Shown here in pieces: positions 73 through 17,493 of a stretch of 22,357 nt of DNA. Numbering within the stretch: the first letter of the stretch is position 1; every line of letters begins with the position of its first letter. Source of the stretch: a virus; UHGV virus genome UHGV-0078062; one strand, written 5' to 3'. The position numbers and the translations under genes are program-made. The notes under the pieces are model-generated. The model was not told where the DNA came from and ran no database searches. It was given only the letters and a program-made list of their open reading frames with translations.

Positions 73-276
73 ATGTACCGTATGGACAAAATCAGAGAAT
101 GGTTCAGTTACAGCTTCGGAGGACTGACTGCGATGGGTGGCATTCTCTCCCTGAATGACTGGGCTGTCATCATTGGTATTCTTTGTACTGTCGGCACATT
201 TGGCATCAACTGGTACTACAAGCGCAAAGAGCGCGAGGACAGATTGAATGGCAATGTCACCGGCACTACGAAATAG
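73..276 (+). CDS. Class II holin, phage-21 S-like pinholin with dual-start antiholin/holin motif
   Basis: 67-aa ORF beginning M-Y-R-M-D-K-I (ATG at 73 and 82), two hydrophobic segments ([28 protein letters not shown]), charged C-terminal tail (KRKEREDR); immediately upstream of and overlapping a SAR endolysin. Confidence 0.8.
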
Positions 277-751
277 CGTAATAGCGGCGATAAGTGGCGG
301 GGCTATTGCTATAGCATCTGTGTTAATCACTGGACCAAGTGGTAACGATGGTCTGGAAGGTGTCAGCTACATACCATACAAAGATATTGTTGGTGTATGG
401 ACTGTATGTCACGGACACACCGGAAAAGACATCGTGCTCGGTAAAATGTATACCGAAGCAGAATGCAAAGCCCTCCTGAATAAAGACCTTGCCACGGTCG
501 CCAGGCAAATTAACCCGCACATCAAAGTCGATATACCGGAAACAACGCGCGGCGCTCTTTATTCGTTCGTCTATAACGTGGGCGCAGGCAATTTCAGAAC
601 ATCGACGCTTCTTCGCAAGATCAACCAGGGCGATATCAATGGCGCATGTGATCAGCTACGTCGCTGGACATACGCTGGCGGTAAGCAATGGAAAGGGCTG
701 ATGACTCGTCGTGAGATTGAGCGTGAAGTCTGTTTGTGGGGGCAGCAATGA
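248..751 (+). CDS. SAR endolysin (GH24 / T4-lysozyme-like muramidase, phage 21 R-like)
   Basis: N-terminal Gly/Ala-rich weakly hydrophobic signal-anchor-release segment ([18 protein letters not shown]) followed by E-x8-D-x5-T catalytic triad ([16 protein letters not shown]); GAGGA SD 8 nt upstream of ATG 248; matches recalled phage 21 R21 layout. Confidence 0.85.
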
Positions 752-9870: not shown

Positions 9871-11289
9871 ATGCCGATTCAGCAACTTCCGCTTATGAAA
9901 GGTGTCGGCAAAGACTTTCGAAACGCCGACTATATCGACTATCTGCCAGTGAATATGCTGGCAACCCCCAAAGAAATCCTTAACAGCAGCGGATATCTTC
10001 GCTCATTCCCGGGCATTGCCAAACGTTCTGATGTGAACGGTGTATCTCGCGGCGTTGAGTACAACATGGCGCAGAATGCTGTTTATCGCGTATGTGGTGG
10101 CAAGCTGTATAAGGGCGAAAGTGAAGTCGGTGATGTTGCCGGAAGTGGTCGTGTATCAATGGCGCATGGTCGCACATCTCAGGCGGTAGGCGTTAATGGT
10201 CAACTGGTCGAGTATCGCTATGATGGCACGGTTAAAACCGTCTCAAACTGGCCTACAGACAGCGGATTCACGCAGTATGAGTTAGGCTCAGTCCGCGACA
10301 TTACACGCTTACGTGGGCGTTATGCGTGGTCAAAAGACGGCACTGATTCATGGTTTATCACTGACCTTGAAGACGAATCGCATCCTGACCGTTACAGCGC
10401 ACAATATCGCGCAGAATCGCAGCCGGACGGCATCATCGGTATCGGCACATGGCGAGACTTCATCGTCTGCTTTGGTTCATCGACGATTGAATATTTTTCC
10501 TTGACTGGTGCAACCACTGTTGGTGCCGCTTTGTATGTCGCCCAGCCATCGTTGATGGTGCAAAAAGGAATAGCCGGAACCTACTGCAAAACGCCGTTTG
10601 CTGATTCGTATGCGTTCATCAGCAATCCGGCAACAGGTGCGCCGTCTGTGTATATCATCGGCTCTGGTCAGGTATCACCAATCGCCAGCGCGAGCATTGA
10701 GAAAATACTACGCTCCTACACTGCTGATGAACTGGCTGATGGCGTGATGGAGTCTCTGCGATTTGATGCGCATGAGTTGCTGATTATCCATCTTCCGCGC
10801 CACGTACTCGTGTACGACGCATCTTCAAGCGCCAATGGTCCGCAATGGTGTGTGCTGAAAACAGGCTTATATGACGATGTGTACCGCGCTATTGACTTCA
10901 TTTACGAAGGAAATCAGATAACGTGCGGCGATAAGCTGGAATCGGTTACCGGGAAATTGCAGTTCGATATCAGCAGTCAGTATGGGCTTCAACAGGAACA
11001 CCTGCTGTTTACTCCGTTGTTCAAAGCGGATAACGCCAGAGTGTTCGATCTTGAGGTTGAATCGTCAACTGGCGTTGCGCAGTACGCCGACCGCCTGTTC
11101 CTCTCTGCAACCACTGACGGCATAAATTACGGACGTGAGCAGATGATTGAACAGAATGAACCGTTCGTTTACGACAAACGTGTTTTGTGGAAGCGAGTCG
11201 GGCGCATCAGGAAAAATTTCGGCTTCAAATTGCGCGTTATCACGAAGTCACCTGTCACTCTGTCAGGCTGCCAGATAAGGATTGAGTAA
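9871..11289 (+). CDS. Tail accessory factor (P22 gp10-like)
   Basis: 472 aa, same length as P22 gp10 as recalled, and in the same gene position; GAGGTG SD upstream. Confidence 0.8.
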
Positions 11290-12137
11290 TGGCTGATTCG
11301 AATCTCAATGTGCCGGTAATCATTCAGGCTACACGGCTCGACACATCAGTCCTTCCACGCAATATCTTCTCGCAGTCGTATCTGCTTTACGTTATCGCAC
11401 AGGGTACTGATGTTGGTAACGTGGCTAACAAGGCCAACGAGGCCGGACAGGGCGCTTATGATGCACAAGTCAGGAACGATGAGCAGGATGTGATTCTCGC
11501 TGATCATGAGCAGCGAATTTCTGCTGCGGAAGCAACGCTTGTTAATCATGAGGAGCGAATCAGCCAGGCAGAATCAACTCTTCAGGAACATGAAACACGA
11601 ATCACTCAGAATGAAAGCGATATTGCGTCGCTTGATACCAGAGTTCAGTCGCTGGAGTCGCAGGTTTCAGACCATGAAACGCGCATTGATGCTCTGGAGT
11701 ATGCAACCACACGCAAGAAGTCAGAGGTTGTTTACTCTGGCGTATCAGTAACCATCCCGACAGCGCCGACCAACCTTGTTAGCCTGCTGAAAACGCTCAC
11801 GCCGTCATCCGGGACGTTGGCACCATTCTTCGACACTGTTAACAACAAGATGGTTGTGTTCAACGAGAACAAAACCTTGTTCTTCAAGCTGTCGATCGTC
11901 GGGACGTGGCCCAGCGGAACCGCCAACAGGTCAATGCAGCTAACCTTTTCCGGCTCTGTTCCTGATACGCTGGTCAGCAGTCGTAATGCGGCGACAACAA
12001 ACGACAACATCCTGTTAGCTACATTCTTCAGCGTGGATAAAGACGGATTTCTTGCCACAAATGGCAGTACGTTAACCATTCAGTCGTATGGTGCGGCGTT
12101 TACTGCCACAACCATCAAGATAATCGCGGAGCAGTGA
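11289..12137 (+). CDS. Tail needle (P22 gp26-like) with C-terminal knob extension
   Basis: 282 aa; N-terminus [43 protein letters not shown] close to recalled gp26; heptad coiled-coil repeats ([43 protein letters not shown]...); longer than P22 gp26, consistent with an Sf6/HK620-type knob. Confidence 0.9.
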
Positions 12138-12592
12138 TGATTCAGTTCAAACCAACGCGAAACATCGACCTGATCGAAGCAGTCGGAAATCACCCTGACA
12201 TTATTGCCGGAAGCAACAATGGTGATGGATACGATTACAAGCCTGAATGCCGTTACTTTGAGGTTAACGTGCACGGTCAGTTTGGCGGCATTGTTTACTA
12301 TCAGGAGATTCAGCCGTTGGCATTCGATTGCCACGCCATGTACCTGCCAGAGATTCGCGGCTTCAGCAAGGAAATCGGGCTGGCGTTCTGGCGATACATT
12401 CTGACTAACACCACCGTTCAGTGCGTCACATCGTTCGCCGCACGCAAATTCCGCCACGGGCAGATTTACTGCGCAATGATTGGCCTTAAGCGTGTCGGAA
12501 CCATCAAGAAATACTTTAAAGGCGTGGATGACGTGACTTTTTACAGCGCCACACGCGAAGAACTAATCGACTTCCTGAATCACGGGAGATAG
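12134..12592 (+). CDS. Virion/assembly protein in the P22 gp14 position (function unclear)
   Basis: 152-aa ORF overlapping the needle stop (ATGA) and abutting the ejection-protein genes; assignment by synteny only. Confidence 0.55.
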
Positions 12593-12594
12593 CC

Positions 12595-13287
12595 ATGTTA
12601 TATGCATTTAAGCTGGGCAGAAAACTGCGCGGCGAGGAACCTTATTGCCCTGAAAAAGGCGGGAAAGGTGGCAGTTCTGATAAAAGCGCAAAGTATGCCG
12701 CAGAAGCCCAGAAGTATGCAGCAGACCTGCAAAATCAGCAGTGGCAGACGATCATGAAAAACCTTGCTCCGTTCACGCCTCTTGCGGAGCAGTATGTTAA
12801 CCAGTTGCAGAATCTTTCCAGTTTAGAAGGTCAGGGGCAGGCACTTAATCAGTATTACAACTCTCAGCAGTATAAAGACCTTGCAGGTCAGGCGCGTTAC
12901 CAGAGTCTTGCTGCTGCGGAGGCGACGGGTGGACTTGGTTCGACAGCCACAAGCAATCAACTGGCTACGATCGCGCCGACACTCGGTCAGTCTTGGTTAT
13001 CAAACCAGATGAGCAATTACAACAATCTGGCAAACGTTGGGCTTGGTGCGCTGCAAGGTCAGGCAAACGCCGGGCAGACGTACGCCAACAACATGAGCAG
13101 CATTGCACAGCAAAGCGCAGCACTTGCCGCTGCTAATGCCAATAAACCATCAAGTCTTCAGACTGCAATTAGCGGTGGCACGTCTGGTGCGATTGCCGGT
13201 GCAGGTCTTGCCAGCCTTTTGGGAACATCAACGCCTTGGGGCGCTGGCATTGGTGCTGGTATCGGATTGCTTGGCTCGTTGTTTTAA
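12595..13287 (+). CDS. Ejection (internal virion) protein, P22 gp7-like
   Basis: 230 aa (P22 gp7 is 229 aa as recalled); N-terminus MLYAFKLGRKLRGEEPYCPEKGGKGG; Gly/Ala-rich C-terminus; syntenic. Confidence 0.75.
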   Translation: MLYAFKLGRKLRGEEPYCPEKGGKGGSSDKSAKYAAEAQKYAADLQNQQWQTIMKNLAPFTPLAEQYVNQLQNLSSLEGQGQALNQYYNSQQYKDLAGQARYQSLAAAEATGGLGSTATSNQLATIAPTLGQSWLSNQMSNYNNLANVGLGALQGQANAGQTYANNMSSIAQQSAALAAANANKPSSLQTAISGGTSGAIAGAGLASLLGTSTPWGAGIGAGIGLLGSLF

Positions 13288-13296
13288 GGGGTAATC

Positions 13297-14628
13297 ATGG
13301 CTACTTGGCAAGGAACAAACGGCGGATTGTTGGCTGGTATCGGCGGCGTCAACTCAAACGCTCCGAGCGTAAATGACATCGGCAATACGCTTCAGCTTAT
13401 CAGGCAGAACAATGATATTGAGCGTTCAGGCGCTAACAATGTTGGGCTGACTGCTTTGCAAGGCCTTTCAGGTATTGCGGGGGTGTTTCAGCAGGAAAAG
13501 CAGGCTCAGCGGCAGAAAGAATTTCAGCAGGCATACGCTAATGCTTATGCGTCTGGTGATCGCGGTGCTTTGCGTCAGTTGGCTACTCAATATCCAGAAC
13601 AGATTGAATCCGTTCGTAAAGGCATGGGATTCATTGATGAAGATCAGCGTAATTCTATCGGCACCTTAGCGGCTGGCGCACGCCTTGCGTCATCGTCTCC
13701 AGAAGCAATGCAATCATGGCTGCAAAACAACGCCGGTGAGTTAGCTCGTGTTGGCGTTAATCCTCAGGACGTCGCTCAGATGTACCAACAGAACCCGCGG
13801 CAGTTCGGCGAATTTGTCGATCACCTGGGGATGAACAGTCTCGGACCCGAAAAATACTTTGACCTACAGGATAAAATGCAGGGTCGCCAGGTTACCATGC
13901 GCGGTCAGGATCTGGATTCGCAAACCGCCGCTCGGAATCAGGCAATCACAATGCGCGGGCAAGATATCCAGGCGAATTTAGGTCAGCAGCGCATTAATCT
14001 GGACGCAGAAACAAACCGCATTAACAACGAAAATAAGCGCCTTGACCGGATGCTATCAGCAGAAACTAACGACCTGAAGCGCCAGGAAATACAGAGCCGC
14101 ATAGCAGCCAACAACCAGCAGTTGCAGCAGAAGCAGCAAGCGCTAAATGATGGCTACAAAGACGGCATCAACACCCTCACAACCAGCATGTTCACTCTGA
14201 ACGATATCGTTAGTTCTCCTTCACTTAAGAGCATTACAGGCTTACGTGGAGTAATCCCCAACGTTCCAGGCTCACAGGCTGCAGACACTCAGGCACGACT
14301 TGATACCTTTAAATCCCAAGCATACCTGACAGCGGTTCAGGCCATGCGAGGCATGGGCGCACTTTCTGATGCCGAGGGCAAAAAGCTCGACCAGGCTGTT
14401 GGTTCGCTGCAGAACTCGCAGAGCGAGGAGTCCTTTCGTCGCAACGCTGGCGTCATCCTGAACACGCTCAACCAGAAGCGTAATGAGGCGGTTGGTAAGT
14501 ACGTTCAGCAAAACGGTATCAAGCGAGTGGAAGCGCCTCAGGCTTCTATAGATTACCTGAAGCAGCACCCCGAGCTGTCAATCGACTTCATTAATCGCTA
14601 CGGATATCTTCCATCTTTGGGGCAGTAA
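13297..14628 (+). CDS. Ejection protein, P22 gp20-like
   Basis: 443 aa, Gln-rich helical protein in the gp20 position. Confidence 0.7.
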   Translation: MATWQGTNGGLLAGIGGVNSNAPSVNDIGNTLQLIRQNNDIERSGANNVGLTALQGLSGIAGVFQQEKQAQRQKEFQQAYANAYASGDRGALRQLATQYPEQIESVRKGMGFIDEDQRNSIGTLAAGARLASSSPEAMQSWLQNNAGELARVGVNPQDVAQMYQQNPRQFGEFVDHLGMNSLGPEKYFDLQDKMQGRQVTMRGQDLDSQTAARNQAITMRGQDIQANLGQQRINLDAETNRINNENKRLDRMLSAETNDLKRQEIQSRIAANNQQLQQKQQALNDGYKDGINTLTTSMFTLNDIVSSPSLKSITGLRGVIPNVPGSQAADTQARLDTFKSQAYLTAVQAMRGMGALSDAEGKKLDQAVGSLQNSQSEESFRRNAGVILNTLNQKRNEAVGKYVQQNGIKRVEAPQASIDYLKQHPELSIDFINRYGYLPSLGQ

Positions 14629-17022
14629 ATGGCTAATTACCGTGATTTGTTAGAGCAGGCTGGCGCACGTTACGGTGTGCCAGAAGGGTTGATGACTGCA
14701 CTGGGTGCCAAGGAGTCTTCTTACAACCCTGCCGCAGTAAGCTCCGCCGGGGCTGTAGGATTGACTCAGGTCATGCCTGGGACATGGCGTGATATGGGTT
14801 ATACCGATGAGCAAATGCAAAACCCCGAATATCAGGCTGACGCTGGCGCGCGCTATCTGGCAAAGATGTACCAGCAGTTTGGTAACTGGCGTGACGCTCT
14901 TCAGGCTTATCACGACGGTCCCGGCAACGTTATGAAGGCAAAGCGTGGTGAATATACGCCAGGACCTGAAGGCCGCGGTTACGTTGATGATCGCTTTGCT
15001 CAATGGGCGGGTGACCCGGTGACAGACTCAACAGTCGAACAGCGCGCCACCTCTGCAAAGGTACATCCTCAGCAAGACCCTAACAACCCGTTTGCACAAC
15101 TGGAAGTACAGTCATCCGAACAAGTATCGGCATCAGGTGTGCAGTCAGACCCAAATAATCCATTTGCTCAGATTGAGCAGCAGGCAGCCAGTCAGCAGCC
15201 ACCTCAACCCGTAAGTTCTGTCGCACCGAAACCTGTTCAGCAGCAAGGCGGAATAATGTCTGACCTTGGTAATGGACTTGCTGAAACCGGGCGCGGCATA
15301 CTACAGGCAGGAATCAACGTAGCGAACATACCTGCTGAACTCACTGATGCTGTAACAAGCGCGGCGGCTTGGGCTGGCGGTAAACTCGGCATTGGCGATG
15401 GTACATATCAACCAGCACCACGAGTAACAACGCAGGGATTAGAGCGGGACTTTGGCCTTCGGCAAGGCGCGCTGACTCCACAAACGACAGAGGGAAGGGT
15501 ATTTGCTGAAGCATTGCCTTACCTTACTCCTGCTGGCGTTGAGAGAGCGGCAGCACAGGCACCAACACTTGCTGGTCGAATTGCTCAGGGGGCAACTCGC
15601 CTTCTAGCAGAAAACGCAGTTGGATCACTTGCTGCAAATAGTGCGAAAGATGATGCGGAAGCACTCGCCACCGATTTAGGCGTTGGTGTACTTGCTGGCG
15701 GTGCTATTAACGCTGCCGGACGTGGATTAGGTGCTGCTTATCGTGGCGTTCGTGGTGCTATCGCGCCAGAAGCACAGCAAGCTATCAGATTTGCAGAGCG
15801 TGAAGGAGTTCCTCTGCACACCACAGACCTGTTACAGCCTACTTCCCGCGTCGGAAAAATGGCGCAGACTACAGCAGAAAATATTCCTCTGGCTGGCACA
15901 AGCGGAATGAGAGCAACGCAACAGGAAGCGAGAAGCCAGTTGGTGCAGAGATTTGCTGATAAATTCGGTGAGTATGATCCATCTGTTGTTATTGACAGCC
16001 TTAAAGCGAAAACATCAGGAATTCGTCGTGCCGCCGGTAATCGACTGGAGCAGGTTCAGAATGCTATGGCTGGAGTAAACATTCAGCCTGCGCGAGCAAT
16101 TCAGCAGATTGATACAGAAATATCTAACCTGCAGAAGCTTGGTAAGGTTGCTGATAACGAGACTATTTCAAAACTTCAGTCATATCGTGATGAGCTTGTT
16201 CGCAATGCTGGTCCTGATGGTCCGGTAAATCTGGATTTGAAGCAATTAAGCGATCTGCGCAGCCAGTTCAGAATGGACGTGAAGGGTGAACGACCAGTGT
16301 TACCAAACCGTTCCGATGCTGCCATTCAGCGCGTTTACAAGGCGATGACAGACGATATCAATGGTGCCATTGGTCAGAATCTTGGCAACGATACTCTCCG
16401 TAAATATCAGCAGGCCAATGCCGTATACGCTGACGAAGCGGCGAAACTAAAGAATACCAGGCTGAAGAATGTTCTCATGAAAGGCGACCTGACGCCGGAA
16501 GTTGTCAACAACATGCTATTCAGCAAGAACAAATCGGAAATTAAGACGCTGTATAACTCAGTTGGTCGCGTTGGAAGAGCGCAAATGCGCAATGGCATCA
16601 TTGGAAAGGCGATAGAGAAATCAGGTGGTTCACCTGACCAGTTCCTTCGACAGCTTAACATCCTGCAAAACCAGACTGGCATCACATTTAAAGGTCAGGA
16701 AGCCGCTTATCTGAAAGGATTGAAAAACTACCTTCAGTCCACTCAGCAGGCAGCAAAAGCGGCAGTAACAACACCAACAGGGCAGCAAACCATCCCGTTC
16801 ATTATCGGATATGGGACGGCAATGAACCCGGCGACAACTGGCGCAGCAGTAAGCTACGGACTTCTTACTCGCGCCTATGAGAGCGAGCCATTCAGAAATG
16901 CAATGCTCCGAATGGCAAACACCCCACGCGGATCAACAGCGTTTGAGAAAGCCATGCAGCAGGCGCAAAAGGCCATTAACGCCCTTACTCAGGGTGCCAA
17001 GTCTGATGCGTTGTCAGAATAG
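14629..17022 (+). CDS. Ejection protein (gp16 position) with N-terminal lytic transglycosylase (SLT) domain
   Basis: 797 aa; N-terminus GLMTALGAKESSYNPAAVSSAGAVGLTQVMPGTW is a classic SLT family motif (catalytic ES, GLMQ-like and YN elements); tandem DPNNPFAQ repeats at about aa 150-185; Ala/Gly-rich middle. Confidence 0.8.
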   Translation: MANYRDLLEQAGARYGVPEGLMTALGAKESSYNPAAVSSAGAVGLTQVMPGTWRDMGYTDEQMQNPEYQADAGARYLAKMYQQFGNWRDALQAYHDGPGNVMKAKRGEYTPGPEGRGYVDDRFAQWAGDPVTDSTVEQRATSAKVHPQQDPNNPFAQLEVQSSEQVSASGVQSDPNNPFAQIEQQAASQQPPQPVSSVAPKPVQQQGGIMSDLGNGLAETGRGILQAGINVANIPAELTDAVTSAAAWAGGKLGIGDGTYQPAPRVTTQGLERDFGLRQGALTPQTTEGRVFAEALPYLTPAGVERAAAQAPTLAGRIAQGATRLLAENAVGSLAANSAKDDAEALATDLGVGVLAGGAINAAGRGLGAAYRGVRGAIAPEAQQAIRFAEREGVPLHTTDLLQPTSRVGKMAQTTAENIPLAGTSGMRATQQEARSQLVQRFADKFGEYDPSVVIDSLKAKTSGIRRAAGNRLEQVQNAMAGVNIQPARAIQQIDTEISNLQKLGKVADNETISKLQSYRDELVRNAGPDGPVNLDLKQLSDLRSQFRMDVKGERPVLPNRSDAAIQRVYKAMTDDINGAIGQNLGNDTLRKYQQANAVYADEAAKLKNTRLKNVLMKGDLTPEVVNNMLFSKNKSEIKTLYNSVGRVGRAQMRNGIIGKAIEKSGGSPDQFLRQLNILQNQTGITFKGQEAAYLKGLKNYLQSTQQAAKAAVTTPTGQQTIPFIIGYGTAMNPATTGAAVSYGLLTRAYESEPFRNAMLRMANTPRGSTAFEKAMQQAQKAINALTQGAKSDALSE

Positions 17023-17111
17023 CTTCGCAAACACCAGGAACGTGCAAAAACCAAATATGTAGAACGCAATGTTCAGCATATCTCTTTGCATAAATCCTCC
17101 GTAACTGATGG

Positions 17112-17372
17112 TTAGCTGCTGTCTTTTTTATATAGCTCCTTGAGCGTATCAAAGACAATTTTCTTAACCATATCAGATTGTTGTTCTGCCATACGCTCTG
17201 CATCGTCAATGTAAACAGATGCAGAGCTTTGTTTAGCCAATGATTCTTCAATCGCTGCAATTATCTCTGAGTTCAGCTACCTGTTATTCATCTTCGCACG
17301 CTGCTTAATTTTCGCGTGGAGTTCATGCGGAAGTCTCAAGTGAAACTGCGCCTCGTCGTATTTGCTGTACAT
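17112..17372 (-). pseudogene. mnt: mnt-like ribbon-helix-helix repressor gene interrupted by an in-frame amber codon (TAG at 17277-17279)
   Basis: Minus-strand translation from ATG 17372 gives MYSKYDEAQFHLRLPHELHAKIKQRAKMNNR-stop-LNSEIIAAIEESLAKQSSASVYIDDAERMAEQQSDMVKKIVFDTLKELYKKDSS; both halves parallel recalled P22 Mnt (FNFRMPMEVREKLKFRAEANGRSMNSELLQIV...NDAERLADEQSELVKKMVFDTLKDLYKK). The stop falls in the loop between RHH helices A and B. An upstream in-frame ATG at 17405 is an alternative start. Confidence 0.7.
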
Positions 17373-17493
17373 CCTTGATGCCTCACCAGTTGGGTGGAAT
17401 GGCATCGTAACCTACTGGATAAATACTCAATAGTACCATTTCGGTATGCAATCACATCATGGTTGCATCATATCATTCGTCTGGAGCAATGAA

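Follow-up and report, generated by a model that had tools for sequence, protein, structure and literature searches.

The DNA analysed here is a stretch of 22,357 nucleotides (nt) from the virus genome UHGV-0078062, hereafter called the window. It carries a gp7-gp20-gp16 ejection operon whose last gene encodes a protein of 797 amino acids (aa). The subject of this work is the N-terminal part of that protein, in which a lytic transglycosylase (SLT) domain is followed by two copies of the peptide DPNNPFAQ. The genes run in the order gp26, gp14, gp7, gp20, the 797-aa open reading frame (ORF) and a Head_binding tailspike (Table 1), and the TAA stop codon of the gp20 homologue directly abuts the ATG at 14629 (GGGGCAGTAAATG). 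The profile phrog_770, named 'DNA transfer protein', matches residues 108-797 along its positions 3-666 of 668 (E=1.7e-239), and the homologues retrieved in the representative search carry the precomputed assignment PF26808 (Phage_P22_gp16). An earlier note on this DNA, made from the letters alone, had proposed a third ejection protein much longer than P22 gp16. Gene order and the phrog_770 match confirm, at the level of sequence, that the product is the third, gp16-type ejection protein, and the length of 609 aa given there for P22 gp16 agrees with the literature (PMC8954989). A P22-like (Lederbergvirus) prophage is recognisable in the window, which comprises its late region, and Escherichia coli (E. 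coli) chromosomes contain related prophages that are 96-97% identical to the window over ~80% of its length.

Table 1. Features of the window, with positions counted from its first letter.
Feature	Position	Strand	Basis or remark
gp16-type (third) DNA-ejection protein with N-terminal SLT	14629..17022	+	ATG-to-stop ORF listing, 797 aa + stop
Lytic transglycosylase (SLT, family 1 / GH23-type), aa 7-110	14647..14958	+	PF01464
GAG codon of the predicted catalytic Glu29	14713..14715	+	Slt70 alignment
Tether rich in Q/P/S/A/G/V (69%), aa 121-209 (89 residues)	14989..15255	+	composition
Motif copy 1, DPNNPFAQLE, aa 150-159	15076..15105	+	DPNNPFAQ = aa 150-157, nt 15076-15099
Motif copy 2, DPNNPFAQIE, aa 174-183	15148..15177	+	DPNNPFAQ = aa 174-181, nt 15148-15171
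Sf6-type gp16 body, aa 210-797	15256..17019	+	nt identity to Sf6 gene 13
C-terminal tail of the gp20 homologue (IDYLKQHPELSIDFINRYGYLPSLGQ), proposed docking partner	14548..14625	+	tail type
Mosaic cassette: gp20 C-terminal ~265 aa + gp16 aa 1-204	13834..15240	+	blastn break points
gp7 homologue	12595..13287	+	Pfam P22_gp7, E=1.8e-134
gp20 homologue	13297..14628	+	Pfam Inj_translocase, E=3.8e-68
Sf6-type tail needle	11289-12137		Pfam
gp14	12134-12592		Pfam
Tailspike with P22 head-binding domain (Head_binding)	17446-19740		Pfam; downstream
Phage lysozyme of the lysis cassette	248-751		separate gene from the 797-aa ORF
Putative O-antigen acyltransferase (Acyl_transf_3)	19741-20739	-
Tyrosine integrase	20984-22177	-

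The SLT domain that had been read from the letters is recovered by a profile search, in which Pfam SLT (PF01464) scores 88.6 bits against a gathering cut-off of 21.3 (E=2.8e-25, profile positions 2-110 of 117). The closest solved structure for residues 4-102 is that of E. coli Slt70 (1QSA, E=1.7e-11). Only the ~100-aa catalytic core is shared with this secreted 618-aa housekeeping enzyme, which has a superhelical U-domain of its own. Within the core, the catalytic Glu and the family-1 motifs align, E29-S30 being paired with the catalytic E478-S479 of Slt70. The string quoted in the earlier note (ESSYNPAAVSSAGAVGLTQVMPGT) corresponds to residues 29-52. As for the conservation of the catalytic residue, on which that note had let its proposal stand or fall, position 29 is Glu in 130 of 132 aligned SLT homologues and position 30 is Ser in 127. 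Further, Q47 is Gln in all 132, Y94 and G97 are kept in 131, and the residues of the motifs E29-S30, G44-L45-T46-Q47 and A93-Y94-H95-D96-G97 are conserved in 119-132 of the homologues. H95 stands in place of the Asn of A-Y-N-x-G, as His does in 17 of the 132. The module has a PHROGs family (phrog_21143), and phrog_342, an 'internal virion protein with endolysin domain', aligns with residues 3-190 over profile positions 14-217. The T7 gp16 structures 7EYB and 7K5C match residues 3-112 only (E=6e-4), and over the SLT domain the identity to gp16 of the T7-like phage phiEap-1 is 32%. By its signature, the domain is a catalytically intact family-1 lytic transglycosylase, which, by analogy, would be delivered to the periplasm and cleave peptidoglycan there.

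The SLT module (14629-15303) is present at an identity of at least 95% in 70 of 5426 complete E. coli genomes, and 68 of these 70 copies are at least 99% identical. It is thus unusually uniform in sequence, which may reflect either a recent spread or a strong constraint. The gp20 segment next to it (13900-14628) is more variable, with 29 of 69 E. coli genomes in the 95-99% band. It might be argued that the SLT plays no part in entry and is either vestigial or of the endolysin type, as P22 and Sf6 infect normally with gp16 homologues that lack it (PMC8954989). This is, however, highly improbable: the window has a dedicated lysozyme gene at 248-751, the catalytic signature is intact, the module keeps its uniformity beside a more variable gp20 flank, and for the homologous domain of T7 gp16 a role as an entry enzyme has been documented (PMC8954989, citing Moak and Molineux 2000).

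The SLT domain is followed by the tether that carries the repeats. Two AlphaFold models were examined, one of the full-length protein built on a 149-sequence alignment and the other of residues 1-245 built on the single sequence, the latter being poor, with a predicted local distance difference test (pLDDT) score of 57. In both, the tether has a pLDDT below 50 except at the motif residues, and it is predicted to be disordered. A six-frame translation of the whole window contains DPNNPFAQ exactly twice; the copies are separated by 16 residues, somewhat fewer than the roughly 20 first estimated, and recur with a period of 24 aa. The divergence of their codons was real: the DNA copies (GACCCTAACAACCCGTTTGCACAA vs GACCCAAATAATCCATTTGCTCAG) differ at 6 of 24 nt, all of them synonymous changes at third codon positions, and the remainder of the 24-aa unit has diverged between the copies. 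The repeated 8-mer has a z-score of 7.6 and was matched by none of 200 shuffles of the first 300 aa. Because Tandem Repeats Finder found no DNA-level repeat and only synonymous differences separate the copies, the pair is read as an old duplication held constant at the peptide level, and the motif appears to be functional.

The repeats could alternatively be a chance or slippage duplication, without specific function, in a low-complexity spacer that separates the SLT from the body. The 89 surrounding residues, low in complexity and predicted to be disordered, would tolerate such duplications. Nevertheless, this is improbable, as the eight motif codons show six synonymous and no non-synonymous differences in a unit that has otherwise diverged, no DNA repeat was detected by Tandem Repeats Finder, and similar pairs recur both with SLT domains that are only 42-63% identical and in homologues without an SLT.

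These other pairs were found in the wider gp16 family. DPNNPFAQ[LI]E fits the shared class pattern N-x-F-[AD]-Q-[LIF]-[EDG], and the N-x-F-[AD]-Q class is paired in the phages Skarpretter, Kc237 and IME279 as well as in 14 of 113 family representatives. Skarpretter has exactly two copies, MANVFDQFDQ (aa 1-10) and GGNVFDQFGD, which flank the SLT, and in IME279 the SLT is likewise flanked by MANFFDQFDQ and SGNFFDQFDE; representative P0253 pairs MANMFAEFMP with AGNMFAEFAE. In these virulent podophages the copies thus stand on either side of the SLT, whereas in the window both follow it. In relatives without an SLT the pair is placed at the extreme N-terminus, as in P0132 (MANPFDQFDE..SNPFDQFDD). 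Other members pair different peptides, namely PFDPDAYLA, [KN]PW[ED]KY, LPEGFVLD and [DS][RK]FGG[IV]P. Overall, a significant paired 8-mer lies in the first 250 aa of 32 of the 113 full-length representatives and in the last 250 aa of none. Where the copies are widely spaced, a domain is inserted between them; in the window, as in P0131, both copies come after the cargo. By this comparison, the DPNNPFAQ pair is one variant of a family-wide paired N-terminal motif rather than a peculiarity of this protein.

Some members of the family carry other additions. P0131 (1386 aa) has an N-terminal extension of ~740 aa, in which no Pfam match was found, followed by NPYAQF twice and then the gp16 body. 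P0164 and P0197 (~700 aa) have ~100 residues without a Pfam match between two copies of NFFDQFDE. Judged by their layout, these three look like further arrangements of cargo plus paired motif. A further homologue, P0247 (1043 aa), ends in PF18823 'InPase' (aa 858-990, E=5e-56), which suggests that gp16 can accept cargo at its C-terminal end as well.

The gene itself is a mosaic. Its whole length is carried by phage IME10, with 97% nt identity and 98.7% aa identity over all 797 aa; the SLT, the paired motif and the Sf6-type body are the same, and only point differences separate the two, the IME10 gene being the nearest relative over the full length. The IME10 record (NC_019501.1, 31064-33457; L003, 3001-5394) has no annotated feature over this gene. 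Gene nt 1-618 are 99.5% identical to Sf101 gene 13, and they also match Dewey and Huey. Sf101 gp13 (911 aa, called 'transglycosylase' or 'lytic tail fiber protein') has the same N-terminal module with both DPNNPFAQ copies, and Sf101 gp20 is of the window's type (98% nt). Its body differs, being of the P22 type with insertions and ~20-45% identical to that of the window. From gene nt 613 to past the stop codon (15241-17092), the window is instead 94% identical to Sf6 by blastn, and in megablast the Sf6 match is 95% from gene nt 676 onward.

Sf6 gp13 (665 aa) occupies the same operon position, and its body is 96.6% identical at the aa level to residues 208-797; P22 gp16, also in that position, is 35% identical over residues 330-786. 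Neither has an SLT domain by Pfam or NCBIfam, and their N-terminal modules (MAKAWKDVIASPQY.. in Sf6 and MKVTANGKTFNFP.. in P22), together with the matching gp20 tails, differ from those of the window. The exchanged cassette (Table 1) matches Sf101 and differs from Sf6, and it begins within gp20, where the window protein is 94% identical to that of Sf6 in the first 180 residues and 39% beyond. From these break points, the 797-aa protein is a recombinant of two known gene types. Three N-terminal modules can be told apart: MKVTANGKTF.FP.. in P22 and BTP1, MAKAWKDVIASPQY.. in Sf6, VSe13, Gally and 720R6, and the SLT with repeats in the window, IME10 and Sf101. Each is followed by a Q/E/P-rich linker and is joined to either body type.

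The fusion of an SLT with gp16 is not new and has already been catalogued, as the IME10 and Sf101 cases and the RefSeq naming show; RefSeq uses 'lytic transglycosylase domain-containing protein' and the Sf101 records 'transglycosylase'. Of the complete E. coli genomes, 336 have the Sf6-type body. Among family representatives at the 50% identity level, ~10 of 149 bear an SLT. The nearest SLT relatives, at 42-63% identity, are gp16 homologues of virulent podophages with P22-type ejection operons, namely Skarpretter (977 aa), C130_2 (1021 aa), IME279 (1047 aa) and Kc237 (1044 aa). They share the window's motif class and gp20 tail type, while their bodies are longer and divergent.

The N-terminal class of gp16 was observed to go together with the final 10-28 residues of the gp20 encoded upstream. 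All ten loci of the N-x-F-x-Q class have a gp20 tail of the form ..[LI][DN]YL.xNP....F..[KR]YG[YF][LR]P.., and over six gp16 N-terminal classes each has a tail of its own (in 10/10, 2/2, 2/2, 2-3/3, 2/2 and 4/4 loci). P22 and BTP1 share the tail ..SKSGI[KQ]FTVE, though their gp20 N-terminal parts share 27% identity and their gp16 bodies differ in type. Sf6, VSe13, Gally and 720R6, here termed class B, share ..SNFSSLWGD, and the PFDPDAYLA, PW[ED]KY and LPEGF classes each come with their own gp20 tail. In Gally (OV696608.1, L006), the C-terminal part of gp20 is 81% identical to that of P22, but the tail and the gp16 N-terminus are both of class B. The Gally gp20 switches to ..SNFSSLWGD in its last ~11 residues, after a Q/P-rich stretch, which places the recombination joint within the linker that immediately precedes the tail. 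Among complete E. coli genomes, 70 have the SLT module and 69 the window's gp20 C-terminal type; in every listed genome with both, the two are adjacent, while the gp16 body varies. The earlier suggestion of a flexible linker or binding motif thus pointed in the right direction, given that disorder is predicted for this region and that it holds a conserved, paired motif whose class changes together with the gp20 tail.

A different partner for the motifs deserves consideration. They may form an encapsidation signal that binds the scaffolding protein, or the portal, and has no role in the assembled channel. P22 gp16 needs the scaffolding protein for its incorporation, which is reduced when the N-terminal loop of the scaffold is deleted (PMC12005531), and homologues without an SLT have the first copy at their very N-terminus, a common place for targeting peptides. 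The type of scaffold is, however, not coupled to the N-terminal class of gp16. In phage 720R6, a scaffold gene of the window's type (98.3% nt) is found together with a gp16 N-terminus and a gp20 tail that are both of class B; CUS-3, Kapi1 and 720R6 have the window-type scaffold and are not among the SLT-module matches, and the SLT module is carried by IME10, Dewey and APC_JM3.2, none of which is among the scaffold matches. In these comparisons the motif class tracks the gp20 tail, not the scaffold type, and we consider an encapsidation signal unlikely, although less so than the other alternatives discussed here.

Another proposal is that the motifs recruit a host periplasmic protein, in the manner of the disordered colicin translocation domains that bind TolB or OmpF. 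Such a role would suit an N-terminal region that is predicted to be disordered, has two short aromatic epitopes and must act in the periplasm, and 'NNPF' loosely resembles the 'NNPW' of the TolB box of colicin E9. The resemblance to the TolB box was rejected, as the motif class does not preserve the NP of 'NNPF' (NVFDQF, NFFDQF). Moreover, unrelated N-terminal classes are in use among phages that share the hosts E. coli, Shigella and Salmonella, and the class tracks the phage gp20, not the host. The recruitment of a host protein thus has a very small chance of being correct.

T7 gp16 is the classic, well-studied fusion of an SLT with an ejection protein, and mutants in its SLT are impaired at 20 C and on stationary-phase cells. 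Also known as internal virion protein D, it is the largest ejection protein of its phage and, as in the window, begins with the SLT, after which comes an extended segment. Residues 157-228 of T7 gp16 constitute a 'molecular tape' that cements it to the periplasmic tube protein gp15 (PMC8954989). The local alignment of residues 1-225 with phiEap-1 gp16 extends past the SLT and ends at the second motif copy, where PNNPFAQ (aa 175-181) is aligned with PNEPFAK (phiEap-1 aa 202-208). The corresponding element in T7-like gp16 proteins is PNTPYAK in IME205, PNVPYAK in LL2 and AKPFAK in T7 (aa 204-208), and the T7 element falls inside the gp15-binding tape. It is present once in T7 and twice in the window. 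The pattern PN.P[FY]A[KQ] arose in 7 of 200,000 shuffles of the T7-like segment, and no other protein among 115,000 fetched residues carries it. Beyond ~aa 190 no similarity to the T7 gp16 family, whose body measures ~1100 aa, was found, the body of the window protein belonging to PF26808 / phrog_770.

Taken together, these observations are best read as follows, with a probability of about 0.7: the 797-aa protein would be the gp16 of a P22-like temperate phage integrated in E. coli, in which the SLT opens the peptidoglycan, the two motifs dock on gp20, and the Sf6-type body completes the inner-membrane channel. We infer the docking because the motif co-varies with the gp20 tail and resembles the T7 element. 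In this mechanism, the protein would be packed into the head and, when the phage infects, ejected by way of the tail along with gp7 and gp20. In the periplasm, the SLT (aa 1-~120) would cut N-acetylmuramic acid-N-acetylglucosamine (MurNAc-GlcNAc) bonds locally so that the trans-envelope conduit may pass, as T7 gp16 does; its action around the growing conduit is suggested by the T7 precedent. Each DPNNPFAQ[LI]E copy in the tether would dock on the C-terminal tail of one gp20 subunit. Both the enzyme and the membrane-inserting body would thereby be anchored to the gp20 tube in the periplasm, much as the T7 tape binds gp15, and the body (aa 210-797) would then complete the channel at the inner membrane. 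P22 ejects ~12 gp16 and ~30 gp20 molecules (PMC8402733), and this ~30:12 ratio of gp20 to gp16 is compatible with two gp20 sites per gp16.

Several points weigh against this reading. The gp20 tail and the gp16 N-terminus adjoin, and linkage alone could account for part of their co-variation. Their co-inheritance could also reflect recombination-permissive positions between conserved flanks instead of a physical interaction. The likeness to T7 outside the SLT is a seven-residue pattern that was picked after it had been seen. In the AlphaFold models, the catalytic loop (aa 29-47) has a pLDDT below 50 in both. Lastly, P22 and Sf6 infect without any SLT, and the enzyme is therefore dispensable in at least some conditions.

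A broader version of the docking scheme may tentatively be put forward, to which we give somewhat less than even odds. The pair would be a coupling device, hitherto undescribed, that is common to P22-type ejectosomes, in which two N-terminal peptides of gp16 each dock on one gp20 tail (2:1 gp20:gp16). The device would be kin to the T7 tape; tail and peptides would be swapped as a cassette through Q/P-rich linkers, and cargo, the SLT here and others elsewhere, would be plugged in before or between the peptides. A full-text literature search for the motif strings found no paper, and the paired motif, its gp20-tail partner and the T7 counterpart appear to be undescribed in the searchable literature.

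The recognition of these three elements is what the present analysis adds. Beyond the earlier note, it is seen that the architecture had been catalogued already, that the protein is a recombinant and that the repeats are a family-wide feature. SLT-bearing gp16 proteins occur in several phages with P22-type ejection operons as well as in the 70 E. coli genomes. The same gp16 body exists in nature both with the SLT (window and IME10) and without it (Sf6), and with such matched pairs it can be tested directly under which circumstances a wall-cutting enzyme in the virion is of benefit. The co-variation of motif and gp20 tail offers a testable hypothesis of how the periplasmic tube joins the inner-membrane component, and it links the P22 and T7 systems, which otherwise have little sequence similarity.

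With regard to the rest of the protein, the full-length AlphaFold model has low confidence over residues 101-375, of which 210-375 are Gly/Ala-rich, and describes residues 380-797 as an all-helical domain, most of it with a pLDDT above 90. A Foldseek search of this model against the PDB gave no match at E<=0.001. The Gly/Ala-rich, moderately hydrophobic stretch at residues 342-370 is the only hint in the sequence of insertion into the inner membrane. An internal start at M210, which would give an isoform without the SLT, was considered and rejected, as this Met is not conserved (Ile in BTP1).

The database names of these proteins need some care. Some 665-aa Sf6-type gp13 proteins are also named 'lytic transglycosylase domain-containing protein' in RefSeq or GenBank, among them those of E. 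coli C41 (NZ_CP127252.1; L013, 2126-4123) and phage VSe13 (L005, 1222-3219). A Pfam and NCBIfam scan of the C41 protein and Sf6 gp13 found no SLT, and these two proteins and that of VSe13 all start with MAKAWKDV... Having the body in common with SLT-bearing relatives, the 665-aa proteins seem to have acquired the transglycosylase name from them. In Kc237 (MW258710.1; L008, 3902-7036), a single 1044-aa ORF with a GTG start lies directly after the gp20 homologue and bears the SLT; the record has in its place three small hypothetical genes and a 747-aa 'lytic transglycosylase'.

Elsewhere in the window, a 159-aa ORF (1437-1916, + strand) between the lysis genes and the terminase contains a Tad2-like (Thoeris anti-defence 2) domain (E=6.3e-22). 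The acyltransferase and the integrase, which come after the tailspike, mark the end of the prophage, and the Acyl_transf_3 protein is probably an O-antigen acetylase, as in Sf6 and Sf101. The tailspike ORF is listed from 17446, yet Head_binding begins at its residue 17; to judge from P22 gp9, the true start would seem to be at 17494. Two 42-aa ORFs occupy the minus strand between gp16 and the tailspike (17112-17405), of which the upstream one (17277-17405) resembles an Arc/Mnt ribbon-helix-helix protein (FHLRLPHELHAKIKQRA). Their equivalent in Sf101 is a single annotated coding sequence of 97 aa, which may have been split in the window.

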